In this document: in pieces, positions 7,477-43,092 of the stretch | Position numbering within the stretch: position 1 is the first letter of the stretch | Layout of the letters: the number at the start of each line of letters is the position of its first letter | Assembly (NCBI RefSeq): GCF_054482595.1 | Contig: NZ_CM137008.1 | Direction: 5' to 3' (one strand) | DNA length: 64,000 nucleotides | The notes under the pieces: model-generated | Seen by the model: only the letters and a program-made list of their open reading frames with translations | The model's database searches: none | What the model was told of the DNA's origin: nothing | Translations under genes and position numbers: made by a program

Positions 7477-7565
7477 ACTTTGCTCCTTATGAATGAATTA
7501 GCGGTATAAACGAAAAGGCCGCGTCTCCCGGAGAAGACGCGGCCTGATGGATGAAATGAAGACGT

Positions 7566-7775
7566 TTATTGCCTGAGAATTCCCTCACTGGCGAGATACG
7601 AATTTAGCTGTTTTCCGGCATCAGGTTCAAAATTCCAGCACCGCCAGCGTAGCTGCCCTTCGGCATTGCGGATAACCAGCCGGAAATGCGTTCCCTGGTC
7701 ATCTTCAATAAGCACATTGCGGTAAGCTGTTGTGACGGCAACCGCCTGTTCGCGTGAGAAAGGGCCTTCGGGCAA
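7566..7775 (-). CDS. DUF905 protein (YkfF/YfjT-like)
   Basis: 69 aa; [54 protein letters not shown] resembles K-12 YkfF. Confidence 0.7.
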
Positions 7776-7804
7776 TAAAACAGGGTGGCAGTCCTACATA
7801 CCGG

Positions 7805-8482
7805 CTATTTTCCGATAAATTCAACGCTGGCGCCGGTGGCATTACCGTCAGCACCAACCGTGACGGTCACTTTGTCGTACGCACGGTCTTCAGGATTGAA
7901 TACTTCAAACTCAACCTTATTGCCTTTTACTTCGTAAGAGCCAAAATCAGCGGTTTCTGTTGTTTCCTCGTCATATTCCCGGGCGTATGCCTGCCGGGCA
8001 GCCTGCAGGACGGAATCTTTATCAATAGTGGTCGTCTGTTTCGGGGAAAAACCGGCAAGTGATGTGACAAATTTCGGACAGACCTTCAGCATATCACCGC
8101 GGGTGAATTCCATTCGTACACCAAATGCCTGTAAAACGGACACATCACGCTCTGCTATGGAGTGAACGGCTTTTTTGACCATTTCCGGCGCCTGTCCGAT
8201 TTCCACCTCAACAGCCCTGAATCCCGTCTGCTGATTACACATTTGTGATGTGGGGATCAGGTTACCGTTAATACTGATACGGCTGCCCAGGAGCGTCTGT
8301 ACACCATTCGGGCATCCCTGCATCAGGCCGGTAATACCAATCGTGCCATTTTTCAGCATTACCAGCGCCTGACCATCTTCCGTCATGGTCTGACACCAGC
8401 CGTTTTTGACAGCCCAGTTGCCGGCGGAGGCGGAGAATGATGCCACAGTGAACAGCAGGGGAAAAAGAGCTCTGGTATTCAT
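7805..8482 (-). CDS. secreted protein of unknown function (signal-peptide bearing)
   Basis: Start set at ATG 8482 (MNTRALFPLLFTVASFSASA...), a typical Sec signal; the longer ORF-track N-extension is rejected. Confidence 0.5.
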   Translation of the reverse strand: MNTRALFPLLFTVASFSASAGNWAVKNGWCQTMTEDGQALVMLKNGTIGITGLMQGCPNGVQTLLGSRISINGNLIPTSQMCNQQTGFRAVEVEIGQAPEMVKKAVHSIAERDVSVLQAFGVRMEFTRGDMLKVCPKFVTSLAGFSPKQTTTIDKDSVLQAARQAYAREYDEETTETADFGSYEVKGNKVEFEVFNPEDRAYDKVTVTVGADGNATGASVEFIGK

Positions 8483-8629
8483 GACTGACCTCTGAAATGA
8501 ACGTACGGTGTTATTGATAATGATGGAAGGTATGCAGTGACTGTTCAGGGAATGACGTAGCCGTATATTTAGTTTTCTGTTCAACATATTGTCTCCATAC
8601 CTGTCGGGACGGCTTTGGCAGGCCGGCAA

Positions 8630-9310
8630 TCACAGGTTAAAGGTGTTGATAAGTTTATGGATGAAAGAGAAATGTGGCAGGGCGGAGATAAAACGCTCTT
8701 CAGCGACCAGACTGTGGATGTGGCCTCTCCGTTCAAACCGTTCTGATGTCAGGCTGACTGATTTGATATCTGCCAGAGGAAAGACCTGCAGTTTTCCCTT
8801 CTGTAACGCGATCAGATACCAGCTACCGCTGTAATAAATGAGCCGGCAGGGCTCCAGTGACGGATACCATCGCTCAGTCATCAGAGAGATGTGGATACAC
8901 TGTCTTATTGCCAGGATGAGTTGCGAGAAACACTCGGGGAACGTTGCAGTGATATCCGGCGCCGGTAGCCAGATAAGGCAGGGAGAGGGCTCCTGGTTGT
9001 CGGTAAGACAGGTTATCAGTCGTCCGTTCCGGAGCGGAAGTATCCGTGCGATCCCGGTATTCTGTATAAAAGAAAGCATTTCAGGGATCGCACCTGGGCT
9101 GCTCTGTCGTCTGAGGCTGTACCTGCCATTTCTGTACTCTAAATCCAGGTGAACCAGACGCTGATGAAAATCGCGCTGTAAAGTACGTTCTGTAACGCCA
9201 AATTCATCTGACAGTGTTTTTAGTGACAGAGATTCTCCGGCCATCAGTCGGCTGATAATGAGTGATAAGCGAACCGCCAGGCGATCATGCCGGGAACGAT
9301 TATCAGACAT
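8630..9310 (-). CDS. WYL-domain transcriptional regulator (YfjR-like, HTH N-terminus)
   Basis: 226 aa; N-terminal HTH (LKTLSDEFGVTERTLQRDF), C-terminal region with YYSGSWYLIA, consistent with a WYL domain. Confidence 0.7.
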   Translation of the reverse strand: MSDNRSRHDRLAVRLSLIISRLMAGESLSLKTLSDEFGVTERTLQRDFHQRLVHLDLEYRNGRYSLRRQSSPGAIPEMLSFIQNTGIARILPLRNGRLITCLTDNQEPSPCLIWLPAPDITATFPECFSQLILAIRQCIHISLMTERWYPSLEPCRLIYYSGSWYLIALQKGKLQVFPLADIKSVSLTSERFERRGHIHSLVAEERFISALPHFSFIHKLINTFNL

Positions 9311-27102: not shown

Positions 27103-28446
27103 ATGCACAACTCCAAAATCCGGCTGGCTATACTGGTTGGCTGCATGGCTCTGAGCGCCAACCTGTGGGCCAAAGCGCAGCCGGTGCAGGCAACGCTGGC
27201 CGGGCATGCAATTCTGCCGGCAAAATCCGCTGTTTCAACACCGAAGGATGCGCCGGGCGATTTGCAACAGAGCGGCAAATACACCAGCGGCAAACGCGTC
27301 ACCGAGCTGGGCAGCGTGGCGGGCAAATCCGCAGAACGCCTGACAGGACTCAGCCTGCCGATCAATGGTCAGCCGTTGCAGGGCCACTCAGGTATCAAAC
27401 ACATGCCCGACGGTACCTATTGGGTGCTGACTGACAATGGCTTCGGCAGCAAAGCCAACTCCCCGGATGCCATGCTGTACCTCAACCAATACAAGATAGA
27501 TTTCAAAGACGGCTCGGTAGTACCGCTGAAGACGCTGTTCCTGCATGATCCGGATAAAAAGGTGCCGTTCCACATCATCAACGAGAGCACCGAACTACGC
27601 TATCTGACCGGCAGCGATTTTGATCCGGAAAGCTTCCAGTTTTCCGACGATGCCTTATGGATCGGTGATGAGTTCGGTCCTTACCTGATCAAGACCGACC
27701 TGAACGGCAAGGTGCTGGCGGTGTTCGACACAGAAGTGGACGGTAAGGTGGTTAAATCGCCGGACAACCCGACGCTGACTCTACCTAGCGCTCCGGACGG
27801 TAAGCTGAACTTCCAGGTGGCGCGTTCCAAAGGCTTTGAAGGCATGGCCATCTCGCCGGACGGCAGTAAGCTGTATCCGCTGCTGGAAGGGGCATTGTGG
27901 GACGGTGAGCAGTTCGAGAACGTTGACGGAAAACGCTACCTGCGTGTGCTGGAGTTCGATACCAAACAGCAGGCCTGGACTGGTCGCAGCTGGCAGTACG
28001 TGCTGGAAGACAACCAGAACGCCATCGGCGACTTCAATATGATAGATGATACCCACGGACTGGTGATCGAGCGTGATAACGGCGAAGGCACGGCGGATAA
28101 AGCCTGCGTCGCCGGCGCGCCGACCAACAACTGCTTCAGTCAAGTAGCCAGGTTCAAACGGGTGTATAAAATTGCTTTCTCGGACACTAACGTCGGAAAA
28201 CCTGTCGAAAAACTGGGCTATATTGACCTGATGAAGATTCAGGATCCGAACAAGCTGGCACGCAAGCCGCTGAACGACGGTGTGCTGACCTTCCCGTTCT
28301 TCACCATCGAGAACGTGGATGTGGTTGACACTAACCACATCATCGTAGGCAACGATAATAACTTCCCGTTTTCCTCCAGCCGCTGGCCTAATATGGCGGA
28401 TGACAACGAGTTTATTCTACTGGATGTGAAGGATTTTCTGAAGTAG
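27103..28446 (+). CDS. secreted phytase-like esterase-family protein
   Basis: 447 aa with signal peptide (MHNSKIRLAILVGCMALSANLWA); family call is by recollection only. Confidence 0.5.
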   Translation: MHNSKIRLAILVGCMALSANLWAKAQPVQATLAGHAILPAKSAVSTPKDAPGDLQQSGKYTSGKRVTELGSVAGKSAERLTGLSLPINGQPLQGHSGIKHMPDGTYWVLTDNGFGSKANSPDAMLYLNQYKIDFKDGSVVPLKTLFLHDPDKKVPFHIINESTELRYLTGSDFDPESFQFSDDALWIGDEFGPYLIKTDLNGKVLAVFDTEVDGKVVKSPDNPTLTLPSAPDGKLNFQVARSKGFEGMAISPDGSKLYPLLEGALWDGEQFENVDGKRYLRVLEFDTKQQAWTGRSWQYVLEDNQNAIGDFNMIDDTHGLVIERDNGEGTADKACVAGAPTNNCFSQVARFKRVYKIAFSDTNVGKPVEKLGYIDLMKIQDPNKLARKPLNDGVLTFPFFTIENVDVVDTNHIIVGNDNNFPFSSSRWPNMADDNEFILLDVKDFLK

Positions 28447-28512: not shown

Positions 28513-28563
28513 TCACCTCGCCAGAACCTACCAGAATATGATGTTGGTGGTAATGACTCCAAC

Positions 28564-29067
28564 TTATTGATAGTGTTTTATGTTCAGATAATGCCCGATG
28601 ACTTTGTCATGCAGCTCCACCGATTTTGAGAACGACAGCGACTTCCGTCCCAGCCGTGCCAGGTGCTGCCTCAGATTCAGGTTATGCCGCTCAATTCGCT
28701 GCGTATATCGCTTGCTGATTACGTGCAGCTTTCCCTTCAGGCGGGATTCATACAGCGGCCAGCCATCCGTCATCCATATCACCACGTCAAAGGGTGACAG
28801 CAGGCTCATAAGACGCCCCAGCGTCGCCATAGTGCGTTCACCGAATACGTGCGCAACAACCGTCTTCCGGAGACTGTCATACGCGTAAAACAGCCAGCGC
28901 TGGCGCGATTTAGCCCCGACATAGCCCCACTGTTCGTCCATTTCCGCGCAGACGATGACGTCACTGCCCGGTTGTATGCGCGAGGTTACCGACTGCGGCC
29001 TGAGTTTTTTAAGTGACGTAAAATCGTGTTGAGGCCAACGCCCATAATGCGGGCTGTTGCCCGGCAT
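28564..29067 (-). CDS. insB: IS1 InsB
   Basis: 167-aa ORF; the functional transposase would be the InsAB' frameshift fusion. Confidence 0.9.
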
Positions 29068-29261
29068 CCAACGCCATTCATGGCCATATCAATGATTTTC
29101 TGGTGCGTACCGGGTTGAGAAGCGGTGTAAGTGAACTGCAGTTGCCATGTTTTACGGCAGTGAGAGCAGAGATAGCGCTGATGTCCGGCGGTGCTTTTGC
29201 CGTTACGCACCACCCCGTCAGTAGCTGAACAGGAGGGACAGCTGATAGAAACAGAAGCCAC
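28986..29261 (-). CDS. insA: IS1 InsA
   Basis: 91 aa; [40 protein letters not shown]... Confidence 0.9.
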
Positions 29262-29396
29262 TGGAGCACCTCAAAAACACCATCATACACTAAATCAGTA
29301 AGTTGGCAGCATCACCCGCAGGACTTAGGTGCCGTAGCCTTAGTACCAAAAGGCGATACCTCTGGCGCTGACCGTAAAGGTCTTTTCAATCGTTCA

Positions 29397-29843
29397 TTGT
29401 TCAAATATGACCAGGAAAAAGATATTTATATTTGCCCGATGGGTGAAGAACTTCAGAACCGATTTACGATGGTTGAGGATGGTTTAGAACAGCAAATGTA
29501 CTTTAACAATATTGCCTGTCGCGATTGCAGTCAGCGGTCAAGGTGCACCACATCAAAACGCGATCCGAGGCGTATAAAGCGCTGGGTTCATGAAGCAGAA
29601 ATGGAAGACATGCAAGCCAGGCTTAATGCATCGCCACAAACAGCTGTCGTGCGAAAGCAAACGGTAGAGCATCCGTTCGGGACAATTAAGATGTGGATGG
29701 GAGCGACTCACTTCCTGACGCAACGGTTTAAAAACGTCAGCACAGAAATCAGTCTGCATGTACTGGCTTATAACCTGAAGAGGATGATGTCCATCTGGGG
29801 GGCCGAAGGATTGGCCATTAAGCTGCGAGAACGATGCAGCTAG
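29397..29843 (+). pseudogene. DDE transposase C-terminal fragment (IS5/IS1182-like), truncated at the IS1 junction
   Basis: ...HPFGTIKMWMGATHFLTQRFKNVSTEISLHVLAYNLKRMMSI is a typical DDE transposase C-terminus; the N-terminal half is absent. Confidence 0.5.
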
Positions 29844-30167: not shown

Positions 30168-30932
30168 TTAGTTAGCACGGAATTCCTGGACGGTATCCCA
30201 TGCCACCTGCTGCAGCGCTTTGGCGGTTTGCTCGGTCATATCGCTGTCGGCAGGCAGTGCGCCGCCTATCGGTGACTGGTCATACAGCGTGGCGAACAGC
30301 ACGCTGGCAGCCAGATAGGTTCCCGCCAGCGAGGGGTGATTTCCATCGCTATGATACAGATTGATTTCAGGATGCGTCTTAATTGCGTTACTGAAGGCCA
30401 GCCCGACCGGCGCGACGTATCCCCCGGTTTTACTGGCTATATTCAGATAGGCTTTCTCCAGTTTTTCAGTTTGCTCGGGTTTATCCTTGCTGGCCCAGGT
30501 CATAAAATAAACCACACGCGAGCCCTCTTTGTGAGCCATATCTGCCATCTTGACGGCGGACTCCGTGAAATAGTGACGCGAATCTTTTTTAGCGGAAAAA
30601 GGCTCTGTTGAATTCCCCTGAAATATCACCACGTCCCATTTTTGCAGCGTATTCTGGAATTCAAGATTCGGAAGGTGCCAGCCTAAACGTCCAGAAGAAA
30701 TGGTGATTCCCCGGAACATATAGTCTTTAGCGCCATTCGGTAACAGCGAACGGCTGAGATCGCGCAGTCGGGTATTTATATTATTGTTATAATGTGTATA
30801 TGAATTTCCGTAGAGCGCAATGGATTTATTGACTCCGCTCAGTTTATCCTGCGGTTTGGCTGCAATAATCGTATCGGCCTGCGCGTCGACCATCAGCGCC
30901 AGTCCTGCCAGCAACAACATGATTTTTTTCAT
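30168..30932 (-). CDS. secreted SGNH/GDSL-type hydrolase (esterase-like)
   Basis: Start set at ATG 30932 (MKKIMLLLAGLALMVDAQA signal); family assignment tentative. Confidence 0.5.
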   Translation of the reverse strand: MKKIMLLLAGLALMVDAQADTIIAAKPQDKLSGVNKSIALYGNSYTHYNNNINTRLRDLSRSLLPNGAKDYMFRGITISSGRLGWHLPNLEFQNTLQKWDVVIFQGNSTEPFSAKKDSRHYFTESAVKMADMAHKEGSRVVYFMTWASKDKPEQTEKLEKAYLNIASKTGGYVAPVGLAFSNAIKTHPEINLYHSDGNHPSLAGTYLAASVLFATLYDQSPIGGALPADSDMTEQTAKALQQVAWDTVQEFRAN

Positions 30933-30942
30933 TATTCTTTCC

Positions 30943-31992
30943 TCAGAAGTCGTAGCGCAACCCGACGATAATGGCGTCATCGTTGACCTTCTCGTTTTTA
31001 CTGGCCAGCGTATTAAGGTAAGTTGCTGATAAATACACATTCTTAGCTAAGGTTAGCTGCGATTCAATTCGCCAGCCCTCGTGTTCGTACACATCCTCGT
31101 CGGCTTCATCCAGGATGCTGTACCCGCCAAGCACTTTGAATTCTTTGGTGAATTGATAGGAGGCAACGGAATCGAAACTCGTATAGTCATTGTCAGATTT
31201 ATTGTCTCTTTCTATGGAGACCTTACCCGCCGTTACGGCTAATGACAAATCGCTATAATCGAACTGCAGCCCGCCCATTACCTGGCTGTGCTTCTTGCGG
31301 CCGTCGGTGGTTTTTACGCCGTCCTGACGGTTATATTGACTGACGGCAATCGCCGGTGTGATTTTTACGTCGCCGAATTTAATCATCTTGCGATAACTGG
31401 CCATCATGCCGTTATCAAGTGCATCGTTGTCGCTATTGCCATTTCCAAAAACGTAAGCCAGTTGCACCTGATGCCCGCTAAAATCACCGTTCCATTGCAG
31501 GGTGCCATCCTGACGGTTAAATTGGTAAGAATCGTCAATAGTGGTAATACCGTAGTTATATACGTTTGGCGTAAAGTTTTTATATTTGTCCGTCATGCGC
31601 ATGACCTGATATAACGGGTTTTTAGTACGACCGGCAATCAGCTCGCCATATTTAGCATGAGAAAGCCCCAGATAGGCGTAACGGGCGTCGAGATCTTTAT
31701 CTTTGGTTTTATTATCATCTTTTTCAGTACGAACCTGCCACTCCAGGCGACCGACAAGTTTAGTATCTTCCAGTAAAGGGAGGTCGCGGGTTAAATAAAT
31801 CCCTAAGCGCCCCCCTATTTGGCTACGGGAGTCATCATTTGCGAATGATGCTTCTCCATTCGCTAACTGCCACTCAATACGCCCGTAAATATCCAGCGTG
31901 GTGGCTTTATCCTCATAAACGCTAATCGCCAGCGCTGACGTGCTAGCCCCAGATAAGGCAATGAATAATAATGTTTTGGCTTTAATGCTCAT
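30943..31992 (-). CDS. outer-membrane beta-barrel porin
   Basis: 349 aa, signal peptide (MSIKAKTLLFIALSGASTSALA), alternating hydrophobic pattern, C-terminal ...GLRYDF with terminal Phe. Confidence 0.6.
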   Translation of the reverse strand: MSIKAKTLLFIALSGASTSALAISVYEDKATTLDIYGRIEWQLANGEASFANDDSRSQIGGRLGIYLTRDLPLLEDTKLVGRLEWQVRTEKDDNKTKDKDLDARYAYLGLSHAKYGELIAGRTKNPLYQVMRMTDKYKNFTPNVYNYGITTIDDSYQFNRQDGTLQWNGDFSGHQVQLAYVFGNGNSDNDALDNGMMASYRKMIKFGDVKITPAIAVSQYNRQDGVKTTDGRKKHSQVMGGLQFDYSDLSLAVTAGKVSIERDNKSDNDYTSFDSVASYQFTKEFKVLGGYSILDEADEDVYEHEGWRIESQLTLAKNVYLSATYLNTLASKNEKVNDDAIIVGLRYDF

Positions 31993-32410
31993 GCTGTTCT
32001 TCCCCTTTAAAAAATAAATATGTTCGCCCTTGATGCAGGATTAAATAGTTGTTATCAGGCGCCATTAATTTTTAGTTACATTAATGCAGAGCGAATACGG
32101 GAATTGCGTTTTCTCATAATAAAATGTGATTTTACGCACATAAAATAGGGCTTAATGGCTGGCGTTGTTATTTGTGAAGATTTCATTGAAAATAAATAAT
32201 AGCGATTTAATTGATTCTCTCCGAACTGAGATATAAATGGCGAATTTATGTTAATCTCATCACGTTTTTCATATTGTGATCCCCGGAACATATGGGAAAT
32301 GCATATTCCCCTGTTTACGCAGTGAGAATTGCTCCAGAATACTCGTTACGCAGTTAAATTTGATTTGAATGATATGCTGTTATCAGCGACGTACGTCACA
32401 GGAGTTTATA

Positions 32411-33781
32411 ATGCCAGGCAGTCAAAGTTCGGTATTTGATTCAGAATTGTATTCCTCTCTCTTCACGCAGCCGGAGATGAAATCAATCTGGTCCGATGAT
32501 AATCTTCTTCGCTGTTGGCTGACCTTTGAAGCAACCATCGCGCATGTGCAGACTGAGTTAGGTATTATTCCCCCTGAAGCCGCCGCGGAAATTTCCGCCG
32601 CCTGCCAGACGCTGAAAATAGACTGGCCGCGCCTCGCCAGGGAAACGCGTTCCGTCGGTATGGCGATTAAGCCTCTGGTTGATCAAATTGCCGATGCGGG
32701 TTCCCCTTTGGTCAAAAAATACCTTCACTGGGGCTGCACGACTCAGGATCTGCTGGATACCGCCCTGGCCATGCGCATGAAGCAAACCCTGCAATTACTG
32801 CGCAGACAGTTGGTGCAGTTGGGCGAAACGTTGAAAGCTATGGCGCTTGAGCACCGACATACGGTGATGGTCGCCAGAACGAATTCCGTCGATGCTTCCG
32901 CCACGACGTGGGGGCTACACGTCAGCAGCTATCTGTCCGAGCTAACCCGCCACCTTCAGCGCCTGGATCGCCTCTACCCGGCAGCGACTACCGGCCTGTT
33001 TGGTGGCGCGGTCGGCAACCTGGCCTCCGTCGGCAGCCAGGGAATGGCGATACGTAAGCAATTAATGGGCGCGTTAGGGTTGTCATGCCCTGTCGGTATG
33101 AGCAATGCCAGTCAGGATCATGTAGTCGAAGTGGTGCAGTTTTTTGCCCTGGTGCATGGCACGCTGTGTCGCATGGCCAACGACGTTGAAACGCAGGGCC
33201 GCACGTCCGTGGGCGAGTTGCGTGAAGGCGAAGGCGGTGGAGGATCCAGTACGATGCCACACAAGACGAATCCCCGCGCGAGCAATATGATCCAGACGCT
33301 TTCCCGCATGGGCTGGAACTATGCCTCTGGTGCAACCAGCCTTCTCGATCAGTGTGACGTGCGTGCTGCCTCCGCCCGCGTACTCAACTGGACGCTGGTA
33401 CCGGAGTCGGCGCTGGCCTTGTCGGCCAGCCTTGAACGTGCTGTCCGGTTAATTACGCATCTGGTGGTGGACAAAGAGAAGATGCGCAGCAACTTCGCCG
33501 CTTCAAAGAACTTCATTATGTCGGAATCCGTCACCATGGTATTGGCTGAGAAAATCGGGCGTGGTGCCGCTTACGATCTGATGAAAGCGTTATTAAAAGA
33601 CGCAGACGGCTCTAAAGACCTGTTGCAGTGCATGCTGGAAAATCAGACCGTTATTGACGCGCTAACTGAGTCGGAGATTGTTGCTGCTTGCGATCCATTG
33701 TCTTATCTGGGCTGCAATGACGCGCTGATCGAAGAAACCGTCATAGCCTTCGACGATTACATTCATGTCCGGACGGCGTAG
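32411..33781 (+). CDS. fumarate-lyase-superfamily enzyme (adenylosuccinate-lyase / 3-carboxymuconate-cycloisomerase-like)
   Basis: ATG 32411 preceded by AGGAG; signature GSSTMPHKTNP (GSSxMPxKxN); substrate not inferable from sequence. Confidence 0.75.
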   Translation: MPGSQSSVFDSELYSSLFTQPEMKSIWSDDNLLRCWLTFEATIAHVQTELGIIPPEAAAEISAACQTLKIDWPRLARETRSVGMAIKPLVDQIADAGSPLVKKYLHWGCTTQDLLDTALAMRMKQTLQLLRRQLVQLGETLKAMALEHRHTVMVARTNSVDASATTWGLHVSSYLSELTRHLQRLDRLYPAATTGLFGGAVGNLASVGSQGMAIRKQLMGALGLSCPVGMSNASQDHVVEVVQFFALVHGTLCRMANDVETQGRTSVGELREGEGGGGSSTMPHKTNPRASNMIQTLSRMGWNYASGATSLLDQCDVRAASARVLNWTLVPESALALSASLERAVRLITHLVVDKEKMRSNFAASKNFIMSESVTMVLAEKIGRGAAYDLMKALLKDADGSKDLLQCMLENQTVIDALTESEIVAACDPLSYLGCNDALIEETVIAFDDYIHVRTA

Positions 33782-33834
33782 TCCAGAGCCATTCGCTTCC
33801 TGCCGAAAGCAGGTGTGCCGACAGGAAGCGGTCA

Positions 33835-34722
33835 TTATCCAGGAAGAGGTGAAAAGGTTTCAAAAAAGACAAACAGTTCCTCCAGTTGCTCGAAATTGCC
33901 CTCGCCTTCGCCTTTTTCATAGGCCAGATGCAACACCAGCTCAATAAAAAAGAAACCTACGATGCGGCTTTTGAATACGGATTGCGTATCGCTCGGCAAC
34001 ACAAACTGCAGATTACAAAATTTGCCGTACGGGTTGGACTCCGAGTTAGTAATCAGCACTACCGTCGCGCCTTTTTTACAACACCATTCGGTAACGCGAA
34101 TCACTACCCGGTTAAAACGGTAGTAGGAGAAAACGATCAGCACGTCCTGATCCGTAACGGTCAGCAATGACTTCGGCAACTCCCCAACGTCCATAGAAAG
34201 CAATGTAACCCGATCGCGGAAATATTTAATCAGCGTAGTAAAATGTTTCGCCATCGCATAGGAAGACGCGGGACCGATTACGTATATATGTCGGTTGGTA
34301 TTCAAAATAATGTCGATAAATTTATCCAGACTGTCAATATTGATATTATCTTTAAAATTCTCGAACAAGGTCGTAACATTCTTATTAAATTCGGAAACAA
34401 TTTGTTCCGTGGTAATCTTTTCTTTTACCTGAATGCGTGATGCCAGCTCAAACGGCGGCACCATTTTTTGCAGTGTCAGCGTATTTTCCAATGCCCGACG
34501 GAAGTCAGCGTAGCCGATAAATCCCAGCTTATTTAAAAAACGCCCAACCGTTGCTTTACTCACCATTGCATTGCGGGCAATGTCGATGATGCCGTGAAAA
34601 GGGAGTTCATTAAAATGTTCACGCATATACGCGTCAAGACGGTGTTCTGACTCGGTTAGTGAACATAACAGCACGGTTTTTGAAATATAGTCCTCTAATG
34701 TTAAAGGGGTATTTTTTTTCAT
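33835..34722 (-). CDS. RpiR/MurR-family transcriptional regulator (HTH + SIS domain)
   Basis: 295 aa; N-terminal HTH (...IIDIARNAMVSKATVGRFLNKLGFIGY...), C-terminal SIS-like region; divergent from the transporter gene. Confidence 0.7.
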   Translation of the reverse strand: MKKNTPLTLEDYISKTVLLCSLTESEHRLDAYMREHFNELPFHGIIDIARNAMVSKATVGRFLNKLGFIGYADFRRALENTLTLQKMVPPFELASRIQVKEKITTEQIVSEFNKNVTTLFENFKDNINIDSLDKFIDIILNTNRHIYVIGPASSYAMAKHFTTLIKYFRDRVTLLSMDVGELPKSLLTVTDQDVLIVFSYYRFNRVVIRVTEWCCKKGATVVLITNSESNPYGKFCNLQFVLPSDTQSVFKSRIVGFFFIELVLHLAYEKGEGEGNFEQLEELFVFFETFSPLPG

Positions 34723-35005
34723 AATTGTCGTCCTTACACACTACGGATAAAAAGATACTATATTCAGTATAGAGAATAACCTTATCACATAATAATGCTA
34801 TGCTATAGCCTTCCGTAAAGTGATTGACATATTTCCTGTTATGAGATCATGCGCACAAACCCCAGCGGGAAAAGCAATTTCTCATAGCTCACATTACCCT
34901 GATTCGATCATGATTTCATTACGGCATCAGTCTCTGAATTTATAGAGAATTAGGCGATCTAAATATAACTAGCCGTCATATATAGGAAAACAAAAGGACG
35001 ATCTC

Positions 35006-36382
35006 ATGACCGCATTTGTAATCGCAATCGTGATCACTATCATTGCAGCATGGTTAATCATCAAGAACTTCCAACCTCAGACGGTATTGCTGCTGGCTGG
35101 TTTGTCTTTACTGACCATTACTGCTGTCTTCTATCCTGATAATAGCATTCTCTACGGTAAGGCTAAATCAACCGGTTCCACCTGGCTGGATATCTTTACG
35201 TTTGCCAAAAATTCACTCTCCACACAGATCGCCGGTATCGGTTTGATCATCATGGCCGCGGGCGGCTTTGCCAGTTATATGGATCATATCAAAGCCTCCA
35301 ATGCAATGGTGAACGTCTGCATTCGTCCCCTGCAAATCATCAAGGCGCCCTACGTGATCCTGGCTGTGGGGTATATTTGCGCACAGTTGCTGCACGTCGC
35401 GATTTCCAGCGCCGCCGGGCTGGCGATGATGTTATTAGTGACGTTCTTCCCGGTGTTGGTACGACTGGGTGTCAGTAAAGCAGCGGCGGCGGCGATGATC
35501 GGTCTGTGCGCCTTTATGGACTTAGGCCCGGCGGTCGGCACGGCCAACCTGGCGGCTAAACATGCCGGTATGGAAGCCGCCGTTTACTTTGCGCACTATC
35601 AGATGCCGGTGGCTGTTGCCGTTATGTTGGTAGTGTCGGTGCTGATTTTCTTTACCGCCAAATATTATGACAAGAAAGATGGTCACGTGATGACCAGCCA
35701 GGTGGCGGACGACACGACGCCTCAGAGTGAGGATAGCGAAAAAGTGCCGGGGCTGTATGCTTTCCTGCCTGTATTCCCTGTGATTCTGGTGCTGGTCTTT
35801 AGCCCGTTGGTCATCTCCACCATTAAAATCGACGTAGTTACCGCCATGATTGTCGGCACAATACTGGCGTTCGTCTGCGAACTGTTCGTTAAACGCGACT
35901 TCCGTGCCTGCTGTAAAGGTGTACAGGTATTTTTTAAAGGAATGGGCGGGATGTTTACCAGCGTGGTTTCATTGTTAGTGTGTGCGGATATCTACGCGCA
36001 GGGAATGCAAAAAATCGGCGCGGTGGATTACCTGTTGGAGATGGTGCAGAACGCGGGCTTTGGCTTTGCCAGCATGACCGTGGTGATGACGCTGCTGGTA
36101 GGTATAACCGCTGTACTGACGGGCTCCGGGGTTGCGGCATTTTTCTCTTTCTCCGGCATGGCGCCTGCTATCGCCACTAAATTTGGCGAAAGCGCTGTAC
36201 ATATGATTCTGCCGATGCAACTGATGGCTGGAATGGGACGTTCCATTTCTCCCGTCGCAGGGATCATCATTGCGGTCAGCAAAGCCGGTGAATGTTCACC
36301 GTTCATGATAGTGCGCAGGACCTTAATTCCGGCGCTCGGCGGCATGCTTACCATGTTGCTGGCTAACTACCTGTTGTTCTGA
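35006..36382 (+). CDS. DcuC-family (C4-dicarboxylate-type) membrane transporter
   Basis: 458-aa polytopic membrane protein; size and composition resemble DcuC as I recall it. Confidence 0.55.
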   Translation: MTAFVIAIVITIIAAWLIIKNFQPQTVLLLAGLSLLTITAVFYPDNSILYGKAKSTGSTWLDIFTFAKNSLSTQIAGIGLIIMAAGGFASYMDHIKASNAMVNVCIRPLQIIKAPYVILAVGYICAQLLHVAISSAAGLAMMLLVTFFPVLVRLGVSKAAAAAMIGLCAFMDLGPAVGTANLAAKHAGMEAAVYFAHYQMPVAVAVMLVVSVLIFFTAKYYDKKDGHVMTSQVADDTTPQSEDSEKVPGLYAFLPVFPVILVLVFSPLVISTIKIDVVTAMIVGTILAFVCELFVKRDFRACCKGVQVFFKGMGGMFTSVVSLLVCADIYAQGMQKIGAVDYLLEMVQNAGFGFASMTVVMTLLVGITAVLTGSGVAAFFSFSGMAPAIATKFGESAVHMILPMQLMAGMGRSISPVAGIIIAVSKAGECSPFMIVRRTLIPALGGMLTMLLANYLLF

Positions 36383-36469
36383 AGGACGTGTCGTCAGTGC
36401 GATGCCATTAAATCCAGAGAGCCAGGCGAGAGTACTTTGTTGTCAACATCAGTTAGCCGGACGTAAGTT

Positions 36470-38164
36470 ATGACCCACGAAATCACAGACAATTTACTTT
36501 ATATCCCTTATGCAGGCCCGGTATTACTGGAATCCCCGCTGCTGAACAAAGGCAGCGGGTTTACTGAAACAGAACGCGCAATGTTTAACCTGAGCGGGCT
36601 GTTGCCCGCAGCGGTTGAGACGATTGAAGAGCAGTCGCTGCGGGCCTATCAGCAATTCCTGGATATCAAGTCGGATATTGCCCGTCATATCTTTCTGCGC
36701 AATATTCAGGATACCAACGAGACGCTGTTTTATCACCTTGTGAGCAAGCACCTGGTGGAAATGATGCCGATTATTTATACCCCGGTAGTCGGACATGCGT
36801 GTGAACACTTTTCCGACATCTATCGCCGCGCCAGGGGATTATTCATCGCCTGGCCGGACCGGCATATGATCGACGAAATATTGCATAACGCCACAAAGCA
36901 GAATATTTCGGTGATTGTCGTCACTGACGGGGAGCGGATCCTCGGCCTGGGCGATCAGGGAATTGGCGGCATGGGGATTCCTATCGGCAAACTTTCGTTG
37001 TACACCGCCTGCGGTGGTATTAAGCCGTCGCATACGCTGCCAATCTTATTGGATGCGGGAACGAACAATTCCCAATTGCTCAATGACCCTTTGTATATGG
37101 GTTGGCGTCATCCGCGCATCACCGGCGACGCATATTTTGAGTTCGTCGAGATGTTTATCCGCGCGGTTAAGCGCCGTTGGCCGGACGTGCTATTACAGTT
37201 CGAAGATTTTGCCCAACAGACGGCGATGCCGCTGCTGACCCGCTATCGTGATGAGATCTGCTGTTTTAATGATGATATCCAGGGTACCGCAGCGGTGACT
37301 TTGGGATGCCTGATGGCGGCAAGCCAGGCCTCCCAACGTCGGTTATGTGACCAAACGGTAGTCTTCCTGGGCGCGGGATCGGCCGGATGTGGCATTGCCG
37401 AACATATCGTCACGCAGATGGTGGCTGAAGGGTTGACCGATGAGCAGGCCCGTTCACGCATTTTCATGGTGGATCGCTTTGGCCTGCTTACGGACGATCA
37501 AACTAATCAGGCTCCTTTCCAGTCACCGCTGGCGCAGCCGCGGTCGCGTTTGGCGAGCTGGGGCGGTCAGCAGGAGGCGTACTCGCTGATGGACGTGGTA
37601 AGCCAGGCTAAACCGTCCGTTCTGATTGGCGTCAGCGGGCAGCCAGGACTATTCAGCGAAGCGGTGATCGGGGAAATGTATCGTCACTGTTCGCAACCGA
37701 TAGTTATGCCACTTTCCAACCCAACCTCGCGCGCAGAGGCACGGCCGGAAGATATTCTGCGCTGGACCGATGGTAACGCGTTAATCGCCACCGGCAGCCC
37801 GTTCGAGCCGGTAAGCCACGGGGGAAAATTGTATCCTGTTGCACAATGCAATAATGTTTATGTCTTCCCTGGTGTGGGTCTCGGCGTGATGGTTAGCCGT
37901 GCCACACGCGTCACGGATAACATGATGATGGCGGCCAGCCGCACGCTGGCAAGTTGTTCGCCGCTGGTGCGCGACGGGCGTGGTCCGCTGTTGCCCAGTA
38001 TTAATGACATCCGGCAGGTGACGCAGGCCATCGCCCTTGATGTTGCTCTGGCTGCTCAACGTGATGGCGTCGCCGTAAATATCCCGCAGGAAACCTTGCA
38101 ACATAACATTTCGAGCGGATTCTGGGAGCCGCAGTATCTTCAGTACAAGCGCACCTCATTCTGA
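36470..38164 (+). CDS. NAD-dependent malic enzyme (MaeA/SfcA paralog)
   Basis: 564 aa; ...[22 protein letters not shown]...[34 protein letters not shown]...[13 protein letters not shown]... tracks E. coli MaeA closely but is clearly diverged. Confidence 0.85.
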
Positions 38165-38280: not shown

Positions 38281-38700
38281 TCACCGGGCATAGCGACCCG
38301 GCAGATTCATACACAGTTTCGTCTCCTCGGCATAGAAATGCGGCAGGTTCCGCTGATAGTCAGACGGCGTTACACCACAAAGCATTTTGAAATCTTTGCT
38401 GAAATGGGCCTGATCATGGAAATCGAGGTCACAAGCAAGGGTGCGCAAATCGACCACGCCGTGATGGATGCGCCGGCACGCTTCATTTACTCTGAGAATA
38501 CGGACAAACGATTTCCAGGAAACGCCAATCCTCTCCTGGCAGAAGCGGTTAATGTGCCGGGCGCTGTATGACGTCATCTCGGACAAGCTATTAAGACGAA
38601 TGCCCCCGTTCAGCGGGGAAGCATGCGTCAGTACCTGACGCAGCAGCGGTTTTTCCTCCAACACAGCGAAGGTGGAAGTTGAGAATAACTCCTTAAGCAA
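38281..38700 (-). pseudogene. AraC-family regulator, HTH domain only (sensor domain cut off by IS1 copy B)
   Basis: 139-aa ORF with an AraC-type HTH; an in-frame stop lies between it and the IS1 end at 38821. Confidence 0.55.
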
Positions 38701-38820: not shown

Positions 38821-39588
38821 GGTGATGCTGCCAACTTACTGATTTAGTGTATGATGGTGTTTTTGAGGTGCTCCAGTGGCTTCTGTTTCTATCAGCTGTC
38901 CCTCCTGTTCAGCTACTGACGGGGTGGTGCGTAACGGCAAAAGCACCGCCGGACATCAGCGCTATCTCTGCTCTCACTGCCGTAAAACATGGCAACTGCA
39001 GTTCACTTACACCGCTTCTCAACCCGGTACGCACCAGAAAATCATTGATATGGCCATGAATGGCGTTGGATGCCGGGCAACAGCCCGCATTATGGGCGTT
39101 GGCCTCAACACGATTTTACGTCACTTAAAAAACTCAGGCCGCAGTCGGTAACCTCGCGCATACAACCGGGCAGTGACGTCATCGTCTGCGCGGAAATGGA
39201 CGAACAGTGGGGCTATGTCGGGGCTAAATCGCGCCAGCGCTGGCTGTTTTACGCGTATGACAGGCTCCGGAAGACGGTTGTTGCGCACGTATTCGGTGAA
39301 CGCACTATGGCGACGCTGGGGCGTCTTATGAGGCTGCTGTCACCCTTTGACGTGGTGATATGGATGACGGATGGCTGGCCGCTGTATGAATCCCGCCTGA
39401 AGGGAAAGCTGCACGTAATCAGCAAGCGATATACGCAGCGAATTGAGCGGCATAACCTGAATCTGAGGCAGCACCTGGCACGGCTGGGACGGAAGTCGCT
39501 GTCGTTCTCAAAATCGGTGGAGCTGCATGACAAAGTCATCGGGCATTATCTGAACATAAAACACTATCAATAAGTTGGAGTCATTACC
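38821..39588 (+). mobile_element. IS1 (complete, 768 bp), copy B, inverted relative to copy A
   Basis: Starts GGTGATGCTGCCAACTTACTGAT at 38821 and ends ...ATCAATAAGTTGGAGTCATTACC at 39588; insA 38876-39151, insB 39070-39573. InsB differs from copy A at two residues (S65R, S88R), so the copies are not identical. Confidence 0.95.
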
Positions 39589-39594
39589 GACACA

Positions 39595-42500
39595 TCAGAA
39601 ACGATATTCCACACTCAACATGGCAGATGTATTATGGTATCCATGTTCTCCAAGTTGAATGCCTGCATCAGCCCGGAATGCTACTTCTGGTGTTATCATT
39701 CCCACAACACCACCATTTATTTCTCCGATATCACGCGCACCATCCTGGTATATACTTACACCATTCATACTGGTGCCGAAAACACGACTATTGTGCAACC
39801 AGTGTGCCTCCACAAATGGTCTGAACGGAACCGCATACCGCGTATTTTTACCGTTTTTGCTGGTAAGCCATGTTCTTGCTCCCAGGCGGGTGAGAATATT
39901 TCCGTTACCGGTATTTTCAATACTGGTTCCGTTACTTTCATGATATTTGTCTGATTTTACATTCATCCGGACAACCTGAAGCTGCGGCTGAACATACCAT
40001 TCATGACTTCCCTTGTAATTGTCGGTAAACTCTCCAGCCTTCCATGAATATCCTGCTTCCAGAGATACCGTAAACCCTTTTGACTTCCATGACTCAGCAG
40101 GCAGCCGTTCTCCATTTATATGATTATCAAACCAGCTGTATTGCAGCCAGCTATCAAGATAAGAACCATTGTGTGTTTCATCATTGGCATACCATGTTGC
40201 ATAAAGACCCGCTGTGTATCCATTCATTCTTCCTTCCGAATGGTATCCGGTGCTCAGGGCATTCGTACTGTTATTATTATGACCATAGCCAGCCATCATA
40301 CCTGTATGCCAGCGATCGGTACCATTCAGGCTCCACTGAGCTATATCTCCCCCTATTAACACAACGTAGCTATTCCCCCGGGTTCTCAGCTGACTACTGT
40401 TGTCACGCCAGCGATTATGTTTTCCTTTATTATACATCCAGATACCTGCTTCATTTTCTTCTCCTGTCATGTGGCTGATATACAACTCCTGTCCCTGTCG
40501 TTCATACAGATTCGTTACAAACAGATTATTTGCAGCAGCAATACTGGCAACATAGCTACCTGCCTCAGGACGCAAATTATTATCATGGCTTTCCGGTACA
40601 GCTTCAGGTTGTGGTACAGGAATGTCTTTTCTGCTAATCAGATACCAGTTAGTGCTGTTAATCCCCTGACCACGTTTCAGTATGTAATCATAAGCTCCGG
40701 CTGTAATACGTTCCGTCTGAATGAATTCAGCATTATCAGCATTGCCACTGACGTGAATCACTTCAATCCCATTAAGTGTCTCTGCACCAGTACCACCGGC
40801 CTGAGTAACAGCGACACGGGTACGGCCACTGGCATTACCTTTAATCACCAGACGATCTGTTTTCGAATTGTCACCACCTGTTTCTGTCTGGAGGAGAATA
40901 AGTCCATTTCTGCCAGTGTAATTCCCTCCGACAGTCAGTATATTACCCGGCATATATGTAGTGAGATCGACTATACCACTATTGCTCAGATTTCCTGCAA
41001 CGCCCCCAAACCCGGAGAGTTTGCCCTGCTCTTCAACAATGACCTGGTTACTGCCGAGCATCACCGGTGAATCTGCGTTCCCCAGTATCACTGTCCCCTG
41101 AATAATATCTGTCATCCCGGTCCATTTTGCGTTATCGCTAATGTTCAGTGCACCTGCTCCCGTCTTGCGAACATTACCATAACCACTGATATTGTTGGTA
41201 AGCTGCCATGCTGATGTACTGTTCAGAGTTAATGTGCCATAGTTATCAACAAAGGCTGTCCCCAGATTATCAGCCGTGGATACAGCCAAATGAGCCCCCT
41301 TATTCACGGTAAAAACACCGGAAAAATTACGATTATTACCCGTTATATCAAGCATTCCCCCATTTATGTTCAGAGAACCATCCCCTGCAATAGTACCTGC
41401 AGATTCTCCTCCATTATTCAGTATCAGACTTCCGCCATGAATGTTCAGCACAGAGCCTGCAGCCGTCAGTAGTTTGCTTATTGTCTGAGGATACCCATTC
41501 ATATCCAGTTCTGCGCCACGGGATAAATATAAATACTCAGTCCGACCAAGAGCATCAGGTGCAGCAAGAATTAATACGCCAGATTTAACCTCTGTATTTC
41601 CTGTATAATTGTTTGTTGCAGAAAGTATAAGAGTACCATTACCTGATTTTGTCAGACTTTTGCCGTCCCAGCCATCATATAATAAAGGTGAAAGATTATC
41701 GGAAAGAGAAACGCCTATGTTCAGAGTGGCATCTTTTTCTATATTAAAGGTTCCATATCCCATCCCTTTTGTATTATTCCATCTCAGCATGGATATCAGT
41801 TTGTTATCGTCGTCATTTAAAGACGTATAAACATAACTTTCAGCACCTTCTGTCAGTAATACATTGTATTGTACAATGTGACTATTATCAGCGATCGAGA
41901 TACCTGTGTCTGACGACAATAATGTGTAATAGTCCTGAGTCCAGTTCTTAATTGATGTGTCTATATTAAGCCATGAATCACTTTTTAATGTAATAGTATT
42001 TGCGTGAACATTAGCATTTCCTACAGACAGGTTCATAGATGCGTCTTCATCAATACTTATATTTCCGTTAAAAATGGAGTTCTTGCCTGACAGATAAACA
42101 GATGAGCCATTCCCAATCATTAGCCCACCATTAATTGCTGTTGCGTTATTGATGTTTTTAATAATTAATTCATTTGTACCATTAACAGGTATACTAGCTA
42201 GTTTAATATCACCATTAATCACAGAATCTGAATAAATATCTAATGAATTATACCCGCCAGAAAAAATTATTGATGTATTATAAGCATCTTTTTGGCTATT
42301 ATATAATCCTGAAAGATTACCATGATTATTAATATGGATATCTTCTCCATAAACAGAGCAACCACCGTCGGGGCCATATCCCCCCTGAACAATACCGTTA
42401 TTATTCAAAGTGATTTGATTTCCAGAAATAGCATCTCCCCCTTGTTTTATTCCATATCCTCCAGATATCATGTTGTCGTTAGTAATGAAAAGATTACTAC

Positions 42501-43092
42501 CATTAATACCATCACCACCGTTTACGCCATTACCGCCCAATATTCCTCCGGAATTATGCACTGTAATATTGCTACCGGTTACACCGGAACCACCTGTCCC
42601 ACCTACATCATCACCTCCGTATATACTTCTGTAATTATCAACTATAATATCATCCCCGCTTAACCCTGCACCTCCGCTACTTCCTGAGCCACCAAGACCA
42701 TTACCCCCATATACATTTCTGTAATTGTTTATAGATATTTTGTTGCCACTAACAGCAATTCCACCATTATATCCATCTCCTCCCCAAACACTACCATTAT
42801 TATTTAGCGTAAAGTTTTCACCGTAGACACCTGCACCACCGATTGATGTATTGCTTGTTCCTCCTTTGATGTTAATACTGCTTTCAACAGATAGTATATT
42901 TTGAGTATAACTTGTTTTATACGGCACGCTGATATTAAGCGCCGCGTTTCCATCAACACCTGTAATACTCCTGGTTATACTTTCAGGTATACCATTACCA
43001 TTCAGTTGTATTGTTTGCGCACCAGAAAAATGAGACTGCACAGAATAAAGTATACTGACCAGAAATTGTAAAATTCGTATATTCTTATTCAT
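39595..43092 (-). CDS. autotransporter adhesin (type Va), AIDA/pertactin-like Gly-rich passenger
   Basis: 1165 aa; signal peptide; repeated GG-x-G and NxS/T passenger repeats; C-terminal beta-barrel ending ...SAMLSVEYRF; AT-rich gene. Confidence 0.8.
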   Translation of the reverse strand: MNKNIRILQFLVSILYSVQSHFSGAQTIQLNGNGIPESITRSITGVDGNAALNISVPYKTSYTQNILSVESSINIKGGTSNTSIGGAGVYGENFTLNNNGSVWGGDGYNGGIAVSGNKISINNYRNVYGGNGLGGSGSSGGAGLSGDDIIVDNYRSIYGGDDVGGTGGSGVTGSNITVHNSGGILGGNGVNGGDGINGSNLFITNDNMISGGYGIKQGGDAISGNQITLNNNGIVQGGYGPDGGCSVYGEDIHINNHGNLSGLYNSQKDAYNTSIIFSGGYNSLDIYSDSVINGDIKLASIPVNGTNELIIKNINNATAINGGLMIGNGSSVYLSGKNSIFNGNISIDEDASMNLSVGNANVHANTITLKSDSWLNIDTSIKNWTQDYYTLLSSDTGISIADNSHIVQYNVLLTEGAESYVYTSLNDDDNKLISMLRWNNTKGMGYGTFNIEKDATLNIGVSLSDNLSPLLYDGWDGKSLTKSGNGTLILSATNNYTGNTEVKSGVLILAAPDALGRTEYLYLSRGAELDMNGYPQTISKLLTAAGSVLNIHGGSLILNNGGESAGTIAGDGSLNINGGMLDITGNNRNFSGVFTVNKGAHLAVSTADNLGTAFVDNYGTLTLNSTSAWQLTNNISGYGNVRKTGAGALNISDNAKWTGMTDIIQGTVILGNADSPVMLGSNQVIVEEQGKLSGFGGVAGNLSNSGIVDLTTYMPGNILTVGGNYTGRNGLILLQTETGGDNSKTDRLVIKGNASGRTRVAVTQAGGTGAETLNGIEVIHVSGNADNAEFIQTERITAGAYDYILKRGQGINSTNWYLISRKDIPVPQPEAVPESHDNNLRPEAGSYVASIAAANNLFVTNLYERQGQELYISHMTGEENEAGIWMYNKGKHNRWRDNSSQLRTRGNSYVVLIGGDIAQWSLNGTDRWHTGMMAGYGHNNNSTNALSTGYHSEGRMNGYTAGLYATWYANDETHNGSYLDSWLQYSWFDNHINGERLPAESWKSKGFTVSLEAGYSWKAGEFTDNYKGSHEWYVQPQLQVVRMNVKSDKYHESNGTSIENTGNGNILTRLGARTWLTSKNGKNTRYAVPFRPFVEAHWLHNSRVFGTSMNGVSIYQDGARDIGEINGGVVGMITPEVAFRADAGIQLGEHGYHNTSAMLSVEYRF

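Follow-up and report, generated by a model that had tools for sequence, protein, structure and literature searches.

A mobile six-gene module of Escherichia coli is a candidate catabolic system for an ester-bearing C4-dicarboxylate compound

Within a stretch of 64,000 nucleotides from contig NZ_CM137008.1 (RefSeq assembly GCF_054482595.1; hereafter the window), six neighboring genes encode a DUF4886/SGNH hydrolase, a porin, an enzyme of the fumarate-lyase family, an RpiR/MurR-family regulator, a DcuC-family transporter, and an NAD-dependent malic enzyme. A first-pass annotation had read these genes as a candidate pathway for a C4-dicarboxylate-related compound. The listing of open reading frames (ORFs) and the RefSeq annotation agree on all gene positions, and the gene content and positions given in the first-pass annotation were correct in every detail. 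The features of the locus are:

30168-30932, minus strand: DUF4886/SGNH hydrolase of 254 aa with signal peptide MKKIMLLLAGLALMVDAQA, predicted to be periplasmic; core component.
30943-31992, minus strand: porin (RefSeq "porin"), 10 bp upstream of the esterase gene and in the same operon; accessory.
32099-32115: operator-like site GGGAATTGCGTTTTCTC, 107 bp upstream of the porin start codon.
32294-32310: operator-like palindrome GGGAAATGCATATTCCC, 101 bp upstream of the lyase start codon.
32411-33781, plus strand: fumarate-lyase-family enzyme (in RefSeq, class-II fumarase/aspartase family) of 456 aa, cytoplasmic; core component.
33835-34722, minus strand: RpiR/MurR-family regulator (HTH_6 and SIS domains; RefSeq naming), the presumed binder of the palindrome; core component.
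34867-34883: operator-like site GGGAAAAGCAATTTCTC within the divergent region between rpiR and dcuC.
35006-36382, plus strand: DcuC-family transporter of a separate clade; core component.
36470-38164, plus strand: NAD-dependent malic enzyme, 87 bp downstream of dcuC; accessory.
37057-37073: perfect operator-like palindrome GGGAACGAACAATTCCC inside the malic-enzyme coding sequence.

An AGGAG ribosome-binding site lies 8 nt upstream of the lyase start codon (ATG at 32411), and scans of the locus for promoter and terminator consensus sequences gave scores no better than those of shuffled sequences.

The same genes are found together in many other bacteria. Homologs of the lyase with 60-90% identity occur in Enterobacterales, Vibrio, Photobacterium, Aliivibrio, Plesiomonas, and metagenome-assembled genomes (MAGs) labeled Shewanella, and the module genes are co-conserved, in shuffled order, in Enterobacterales, Vibrionaceae, Plesiomonas, and Pasteurellaceae. 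Citrobacter and Yersinia aleksiciae have the gene order of E. coli; in V. mimicus, rpiR, the esterase gene, and the porin gene lie on one strand and dcuC, the lyase gene, and the malic-enzyme gene lie divergently on the opposite strand, with a gap of 10 bp between dcuC and the lyase gene and an overlap of 1 bp between the lyase and malic-enzyme genes; Rodentibacter has the order dcuC-lyase-rpiR-esterase-porin, all on one strand; and Plesiomonas and a related MAG have only rpiR, the esterase gene, dcuC, and the lyase gene. When one genome per species (GTDB r220) was scanned by esterase alignment followed by tblastn, lyase, RpiR, and DcuC genes were located within 6 kb at 12 of the 18 loci with a close esterase homolog (at least 52% identity). 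Because the same genes stay together in many genera in varied order, and with a conserved operator, their co-location is not due to chance; the genome-context comparison that the first-pass annotation had proposed therefore supports its grouping of the genes.

Not all six genes are equally constant. The porin was found at 11 of the 13 module loci in the genome scan, and porin and malic-enzyme genes are variably present among the scanned loci and absent in Plesiomonas, Serratia, and V. xiamenensis. Moreover, in one strain of Yersinia aleksiciae (locus L012, 12064-12406) truncation has left 101 codons of the malic-enzyme gene in an otherwise intact module, which is natural evidence for the dispensability of this gene. 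The core thus consists of RpiR, the DUF4886 esterase, DcuC, and the lyase, and the porin and the malic enzyme, which had been taken as integral parts, are frequent add-ons. No further gene recurs among the module loci examined; therefore, the second product of the cleavage apparently needs no dedicated enzyme. Genes for a metal-uptake ABC system adjoin the module in Citrobacter, where they are part of a lineage-specific synteny and not conserved. A sulfosuccinate-type substrate was also considered and found no support, since tauABCD, which lies beside the module in one MAG, is not conserved.

A shared 17-bp motif, GGGAA-N7-TTC(C/T)C, is present in the two divergent control regions of the locus, at 32099, 32294, and 34867. 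The window contains six matches to this motif compared with 0.74 expected from shuffled sequences; these six comprise the three control-region sites and the palindrome in the malic-enzyme gene, the two perfect palindromes being counted on both strands. Outside the window, each RpiR-type locus that was examined has two to four copies of the palindrome GGGAA-N7-TTCCC in its control regions (Vibrio, Citrobacter, Plesiomonas, Yersinia, Enterobacillus, Serratia, Enterobacter, Rodentibacter, and a second E. coli allele described below), and the palindrome is absent from the LysR-regulated and solitary-esterase loci examined. The shared palindrome ties the porin-esterase, lyase, and dcuC(-malic enzyme) units into one regulon, and it is likely the operator to which RpiR would bind. 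This confinement of the palindrome to RpiR-type loci agrees with the earlier proposal that the genes are under control of the RpiR/SIS regulator. The intragenic palindrome is found at the same relative position in the malic-enzyme genes of Yersinia (L011, 12651; one half-site reads TTCTC) and of the second E. coli allele (L106, 12891), and could be an internal regulatory site or simply reflect coding conservation.

The window is accessory DNA of E. coli, and 9 kb of it is 100% identical to the chromosome of E. coli O157:H16 Santai. The module lies in an 11-kb unit that is bracketed by inverted IS1 copies and that is also present on the E. coli plasmid pMRE162; we looked for a target-site duplication around this unit and found none. 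The following features lie at or near its ends:

28549-29316, minus strand: IS1 copy, left boundary of the mobile unit.
38281-38700, minus strand: truncated fragment of an AraC-type regulator with a helix-turn-helix (HTH) domain, a 139-aa ORF.
38821-39588, plus strand: IS1 copy that bounds the mobile unit on the right, in inverted orientation to the left copy.

The HTH fragment comprises only the C-terminal HTH domain of the AraC-type regulator and is probably a truncated hitch-hiker; the gene that follows the malic-enzyme gene in Citrobacter and Yersinia is a different one. Between the left IS1 copy and the esterase gene lies a C-terminal fragment of an IS1182-family transposase (29397-29843, plus strand). 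Just outside the unit are two genes unrelated to the module, one for a secreted 447-aa protein with no NCBIfam match (27103-28446, plus strand) and one for a 1165-aa autotransporter (39595-43092, minus strand) in markedly AT-rich DNA (35-45% GC).

The module is present in 81 or 80 of 5426 complete E. coli genomes, the count varying with the query span; 65 or 64 of these have it at 99% identity or more, and five of the places are on plasmids. Most of the E. coli carriers listed are from poultry, dogs, or sheep, with many from poultry and dogs. A second allele with 85% nucleotide identity is present in 16 E. coli genomes, has exactly the same six genes, and is flanked by IS100 and IS2. E. coli has therefore acquired the module at least twice independently, and two independent acquisitions of an identical gene set support that the genes form one functional unit. 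Matches on Klebsiella plasmids were considered as an alternative context and discarded: abutting truncated DUF4886 and dcuC sequences (~75% nucleotide identity) are found on 52 Klebsiella plasmids among 67 matching, mostly conjugative, plasmids (e.g. at 7400-8995 in locus L006 of the K. pneumoniae plasmid NZ_CP041094.1), and these remnants, which are truncated by insertion sequences, are decayed copies of the module.

The lyase contains the Pfam domains Lyase_1 (E=1.7e-40) and ADSL_C (E=1.8e-10) and, therefore, is a member of the aspartase/fumarase superfamily. The GSSxMPxKxN signature that the first-pass annotation had described is present; the loop reads GGGGSSTMPHKTNPR, and its GSSTMPHKTN core is invariant across the family. 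We compared its scores with the cut-offs of the curated equivalog models of NCBIfam, none of which it reaches. The highest scores were obtained with XcbD (302 against a cut-off of 600), a PurB subfamily (301 against 626), and PcaB (297 against 595 and 259 against 355.75), followed by the general PurB model TIGR00928 (228 against 326), the nitrosuccinate lyase CreD (195 against 650), the E. coli-type PurB model PRK09285 (85 against 446), and the ArgH model TIGR00838 (68 against 279.5), while the fumarase model gave 39 bits (cut-off 665) and the aspartase model 49 bits (cut-off 510). The lyase is not a housekeeping PurB, having 23% identity to K-12 PurB over 220 aa and lying outside the PurB clade, nor a housekeeping ArgH, with 30% identity over 213 aa and a remote position in the tree described below. 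PcaB is rejected because both cut-offs are missed and pca genes are absent from all loci, and nitrosuccinate lyase and XcbD are rejected on their curated scores.

In a protein library clustered at 50% identity and covering 1.8 billion proteins, the lyase family has one representative at 59% identity, and the next relatives are at 43% and then at 39% or less; this drop indicates a sharply bounded orthogroup. None of the nearest library clusters reaches its closest full-length equivalog model, and P0127 alone just passes the shorter PcaB model TIGR02426 (361 against 355.75). We then built a neighbor-joining tree with 60 bootstraps from the lyase family, its library relatives, Tad1, and K-12 PurB and ArgH. 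The lyase family is monophyletic (60/60 bootstraps) and groups with the uncharacterized clusters P0122, P0126, and P0123-P0125 (60/60), a grouping of the family with Tad1 was recovered in 0/60 bootstraps, and K-12 PurB and ArgH are remote. Clustering with a housekeeping PurB or ArgH, which would have spoken against a separate pathway, was thus not observed by score, identity, or tree. The relative with 43% identity is encoded directly downstream of a DcuC gene, and the contexts of P0124 and P0126 were uninformative. P0123, which is 39% identical and comes from the sister clade, carries a signal peptide at its N-terminus; this points to a periplasmic enzyme, which is unusual for the superfamily.

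The best match of the lyase among solved structures is Tad1 of Ustilago maydis (PDB 9H4E; E=2e-72, 36% identity over 421 residues), followed by the structural-genomics "fumarate lyase" 3C8T and then PcaB. Tad1 is a trans-aconitate decarboxylase in which the active-site residues have been mapped (PMC11880804). Of these residues, Gln152 (in HWGCTTQD), Ser320, Ser321, the catalytic Arg360, and Trp369 are kept in the lyase family, and the substrate-contacting Thr362 and the gatekeeper Trp365 are replaced by Ala and Arg, respectively; the motif MAIKPL of the lyase contains an additional, family-specific Lys. Throughout the family, the SS loop, TTQD, and the catalytic Arg are retained. The His of the RTH motif in PurB/ArgH-type lyases is usually taken as the catalytic acid; the lyase family has Asn at this position (ARTN), as does Tad1, whereas PurB- and CMLE-type representatives have RTH. 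On the basis of the kept and replaced Tad1 residues and this Asn, we assign the lyase to the Arg-using CMLE/CreD/Tad1 branch, the known members of which expel good leaving groups, i.e. a carboxylate oxygen, nitrite, or CO2; it also falls, as an uncharacterized clade, in the grouping of B. subtilis-type PurB, CMLE, and Tad1. Its substrate appears to be more anionic or differently shaped. The Asn is found in all three lyase lineages linked to DUF4886, i.e. as ARTN in the family itself and in Radicibacter and as YTN, corresponding to YTH of ArgH, in Sutterella (locus L086, 4676-10807, a MAG); because it is also found in ~25 of the 150 nearest library representatives (about one sixth), the His-to-Asn change is weak evidence.

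The product of 30168-30932 is a predicted periplasmic SGNH hydrolase with an acetyl-esterase-like fold. It contains the Pfam domain DUF4886 (E=1.3e-8) and a Sec signal peptide, the catalytic triad Ser44/Asp196/His199 is invariant, and G42-N43-S44, S108, D196, and H199 are retained in all of 18 homologs down to 38% identity. The AlphaFold2 model is confident (pLDDT 90); its nearest characterized folds are acetyl-xylan, isoamyl-acetate, and rhamnogalacturonan acetyl esterases and TesA, and it also matches the structures 4I8I and 4S1P. Together with the RefSeq porin, orthologs of which carry Porin_4/Porin_1 domains, these features bear out the earlier description of a secreted SGNH esterase and a porin next to the lyase. 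Pfam lists no member of known function for DUF4886 (PMC9487903).

The transporter passes the general DcuC-family models (420 against 100 for NF037994 and 312 against 187 for TIGR00771) and falls below the DcuC and DcuD equivalogs (328 against 513 and 302 against 623), with 33% identity to K-12 DcuC and 37% to DcuD. The DcuC proteins from all the contexts described here form one clade with 40-56% identity among themselves and 33-34% and 34-39% identity to K-12 DcuC and DcuD, respectively, and this clade tracks DUF4886, not the malic enzyme. We therefore rejected the possibility that the transporter is an ortholog of E. coli DcuC or DcuD. The malic enzyme aligns with K-12 MaeA at 65% identity with no gaps and scores 852 bits against 326 for the family model NF010052 and 560, below the cut-off of 850, for the malolactic-enzyme model. 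It was previously described as a second, diverged MaeA paralog; the MaeA type is evident, but rather than diverged it is predicted to be an ordinary MaeA-like NAD-malic enzyme. The regulator is assigned to RpiR/MurR by RefSeq, its orthologs in Citrobacter, Yersinia, and Rodentibacter carry Pfam HTH_6 and SIS domains, and it reaches no named equivalog model.

Close homologs of the esterase (60-69% identity) are also found in Cohaesibacter, Consotaella, and Radicibacter in other arrangements. Cohaesibacter and Consotaella combine LysR, an alpha/beta-hydrolase, DcuC, and the DUF4886 esterase; the alpha/beta-hydrolase of these alpha-proteobacteria is cytoplasmic, with a GHSMGG motif and no signal peptide, and the Cohaesibacter version has an additional M20 peptidase. 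In Radicibacter, LysR is accompanied by a polar-amino-acid-type ABC importer with its binding protein, a lyase with 30% identity, and DUF4886. The first start codon of this esterase (Radicibacter/Hyphomicrobiales UR115; locus L031, 10013-10717; 60% identical) is 22 bp after the lyase stop codon; there is no room for a signal peptide, and the enzyme accompanies an importer, so the reaction that it would catalyze seems to have shifted to the cytoplasm. In Sutterella, an esterase (35% identity) with porin and LysR is encoded divergently from an ArgH-like lyase, which scores 195 bits, below the ArgH cut-off, and has 25% identity to K-12 ArgH, and from DcuC. Our strongest argument comes from this recurrence: because esterase and carrier recur with lyases that are not orthologous, the central reaction would be a beta-elimination on an imported dicarboxylate conjugate. 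Furthermore, because the lyase is apparently replaced by a serine hydrolase in two genera, the scissile bond would also be hydrolyzable, which suggests an ester or a lactone.

Our working model, to which we give about an even chance, is that the six genes together serve the catabolism of a small anionic, ester-bearing compound, as one horizontally mobile module under RpiR control; here we infer the effector, the direction of flux, and each of the chemical steps. The compound would pass the outer membrane via the dedicated porin, and the periplasmic DUF4886 SGNH esterase would take off an acyl or alkyl ester group. The specialized DcuC-clade carrier would import the resulting dicarboxylate conjugate, which the cytoplasmic lyase would split by beta-elimination or by a CMLE-like ring opening to yield fumarate or a close C4-dicarboxylate; the other product would be a common metabolite. 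Housekeeping fumarase and the co-encoded NAD-malic enzyme would then lead to pyruvate, and release of RpiR from the GGGAA-N7-TTCCC operators would presumably be triggered by the conjugate or by its precursor. The logic of import, cleavage, and funneling to pyruvate put forward in the first-pass annotation fits every context seen. The part of it that does not stand is that the signature loop implies release of fumarate; the loop is by itself insufficient for this conclusion because the closest characterized relatives, Tad1 and CMLE, do not release fumarate.

More tentatively, and with low confidence, the scissile bond may be an ester or lactone link at the C2 oxygen of a malate-like unit, which we prefer because such a bond could be cleaved by both a CMLE-type lyase and the alpha-proteobacterial alpha/beta-hydrolase. 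Possible substrates, proposed with the same reserve, are hydroxycinnamoyl- and acetyl-malates and -tartrates, O-acyl-malate or -tartrate, oligo-malate, and carboxylated lactones. Poly(beta-L-malate) (PMLA) as a concrete substrate stays speculation, given that the only bacterial PMLA hydrolase described is of a different kind, being an outer-membrane enzyme and not a serine esterase (PMC9210645). A bolder and slightly less probable form of the proposal is that the module represents a new route for malate- or tartrate-type esters in which a CMLE/Tad1-clade enzyme would cleave an ester intermolecularly by beta-elimination, with other lineages using non-orthologous lyases or a hydrolase. To our knowledge, such a reaction has not been described for the aspartase/fumarase superfamily.

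Several points weigh against this working model. The variant contexts are few (one each for Sutterella and Radicibacter and two for the alpha/beta-hydrolase version), and the functional equivalence of alpha/beta-hydrolase and lyase is assumed. The ABC system of Radicibacter and the M20 peptidase of Cohaesibacter hint at an amino-acid-like conjugate. With a decarboxylase (Tad1) as the closest characterized homolog and a cycloisomerase in CMLE, release of fumarate is not guaranteed, and RpiR/SIS regulators usually sense sugar phosphates, which is not an obvious fit to a dicarboxylate. Finally, ~60 distant DUF4886 homologs (33-43% identity) had no recurrent informative partner; their neighborhoods show housekeeping synteny and, in 10 loci, a 999-aa protein that is unannotated and whose N-terminus, judged by eye, resembles a TonB-dependent receptor.

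The hint at an amino-acid-like conjugate leads to an alternative that we consider unlikely but the most serious of those weighed here, namely that the cell takes up an N- or S-(2-succino) conjugate (for example S-(2-succino)cysteine or the N-acetyl mercapturate of it, or else an N-succino amino acid), from which the periplasmic SGNH enzyme would first remove an acetyl group and which a PurB/ArgH/2SL-like lyase would split into fumarate and an amino acid or thiol. 2SL belongs to the same superfamily, frees fumarate from 2SNAC and 2SC, and is present in Enterobacterales, e.g. Dickeya (PMC9706529). The lyase of Radicibacter is paired with a polar-amino-acid or cystine-type ABC system, the M20 deacylase of Cohaesibacter is of the family of the NAC deacetylase YxeP, and a released amino acid would need no dedicated enzyme. 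However, the acetyltransferase, deacetylase, and ABC genes of a yxe-type locus are absent from the gamma-proteobacterial module, the lyase has Asn in place of the RTH His and sits in the Arg-using branch, its identity to the library representatives with 2SL-like N-termini is only 30-32%, and the alpha/beta-hydrolase that apparently replaces it cannot cleave a thioether or amine bond. Less probable again is that the lyase is a bacterial counterpart of Tad1, acting not as a fumarate-releasing lyase but as decarboxylase or isomerase on an unsaturated tricarboxylate, for example trans-aconitate, that would arrive as its methyl ester or another ester and be opened by the periplasmic esterase. The structural match, the five shared active-site residues, and the common His-to-Asn change favor this possibility, as does the origin of most listed E. 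coli carriers from poultry, dogs, or sheep, trans-aconitate being abundant in grasses and grains. It is opposed by the lack of any bootstrap support for a grouping with Tad1, by the replacement of Thr362 and the gatekeeper Trp365, and by the absence of itaconate-degradation genes from the module loci examined; moreover, a malic enzyme makes no sense downstream of itaconate, and the ArgH-like lyase and alpha/beta-hydrolase that would act as substitutes do not fit a decarboxylation.

A simpler operon for uptake and use of a plain C4-dicarboxylate (malate, fumarate, or aspartate), with the lyase as a spare fumarase or aspartase and the esterase unrelated, is in our view improbable. DcuC and malic enzyme would suffice for malate, and aspA-dcuA of E. 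coli is a precedent for a pair of lyase and Dcu carrier, but it is the malic enzyme that is dispensable whereas the esterase is core and shares the operator, the fumarase and aspartase scores are negligible, and the DcuC clade follows DUF4886 rather than the malic enzyme. Least probable of all, and very much so, is a biosynthetic or secretory module, e.g. for an aminopolycarboxylate metallophore, in which the lyase would run in reverse to join fumarate and X to X-succinate, DcuC would export the product, the SGNH enzyme would be an acyltransferase that decorates it in the periplasm, and the product would leave through the porin. A role in succinate efflux is attributed to E. coli DcuC, and metal-uptake genes lie beside the module in Citrobacter. 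SGNH families include O-acyltransferases (PMC9487903). Yet the metal-transport neighbors are lineage-specific, the malic enzyme and the substrate-type repressor with its divergent promoters are features typical of a catabolic system, and the Radicibacter partner is an importer with a binding protein.

Returning to the working model of an esterified compound that is trimmed, imported, and cleaved, its parts resemble several known systems. Tad1 (PDB 9H4E; PMC11880804) shares with the lyase the branch, the SS loop, TTQD, Arg360, Trp369, and the Asn in the RTx motif, but is not its sister group, and differs at Thr362 and Trp365 and in lacking the extra Lys; in the bacterial context of esterase, DcuC, and malic enzyme, nothing points to itaconate. 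PcaB (CMLE) and CreD, of the Arg-using branch, catalyze beta-elimination or addition of a good leaving group on a succinate-like skeleton and provide the chemical model for the proposed cleavage of an ester or lactone, whereas the lyase scores far below their cut-offs and neither pca nor cre genes are nearby. The 2SL pathway of Enterococcus italicus and Dickeya dadantii, in which fumarate is released from a conjugate, likewise involves a catabolic superfamily member in a locus with transporter and deacylase genes (PMC9706529); its acetyltransferase, ABC transporter, and M20 deacetylase have no equivalents in the E. coli module, and the N-termini of 2SL (E0SKP1 and E6LDH5) differ from that of the lyase in a comparison limited to primer-derived N-termini. 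The principle of a dedicated porin and a periplasmic esterase acting before uptake of an esterified acid is found in nanCMS of E. coli, with the porin NanC and the SGNH-type sialate O-acetylesterase NanS, and the pairing of a Dcu-type carrier with a fumarate-forming lyase is found in aspA-dcuA; unlike the module, both involve different protein families and regulators. Among the individual proteins, MaeA is 65% identical to the module malic enzyme, while DcuC and DcuD are 33-37% identical to the module transporter, which belongs to the separate clade that tracks DUF4886. We know of no single system that joins the porin/esterase and carrier/lyase principles. The searchable literature, queried for the cluster, gene combinations, RefSeq protein accessions, DUF4886, and the superfamily, contained no mention of the cluster or of a function for DUF4886, in line with the earlier description of the pathway as undescribed. 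None of the protein families is new, and in its design the module is similar to familiar catabolic operons; the cluster itself is undescribed in the literature searched.

We conclude that the module most likely lets gut and marine bacteria use an esterified C4-dicarboxylate compound and that it is a well-supported lead for enzyme discovery. On the bolder form of the proposal, the module would give the orphan DUF4886 family its first functional context. Identification of the substrate would give a function to this entire Pfam family, supply a third DcuC clade with a substrate, characterize a clade of the fumarate-lyase superfamily, and define a new pair of RpiR operator and effector. It would also put a name to the nutrient that a minority of E. 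coli, and many fish-, insect-, and gut-associated Gammaproteobacteria, gain through a mobile element, with a bearing on niche adaptation and on the spread of metabolic islands by plasmids.

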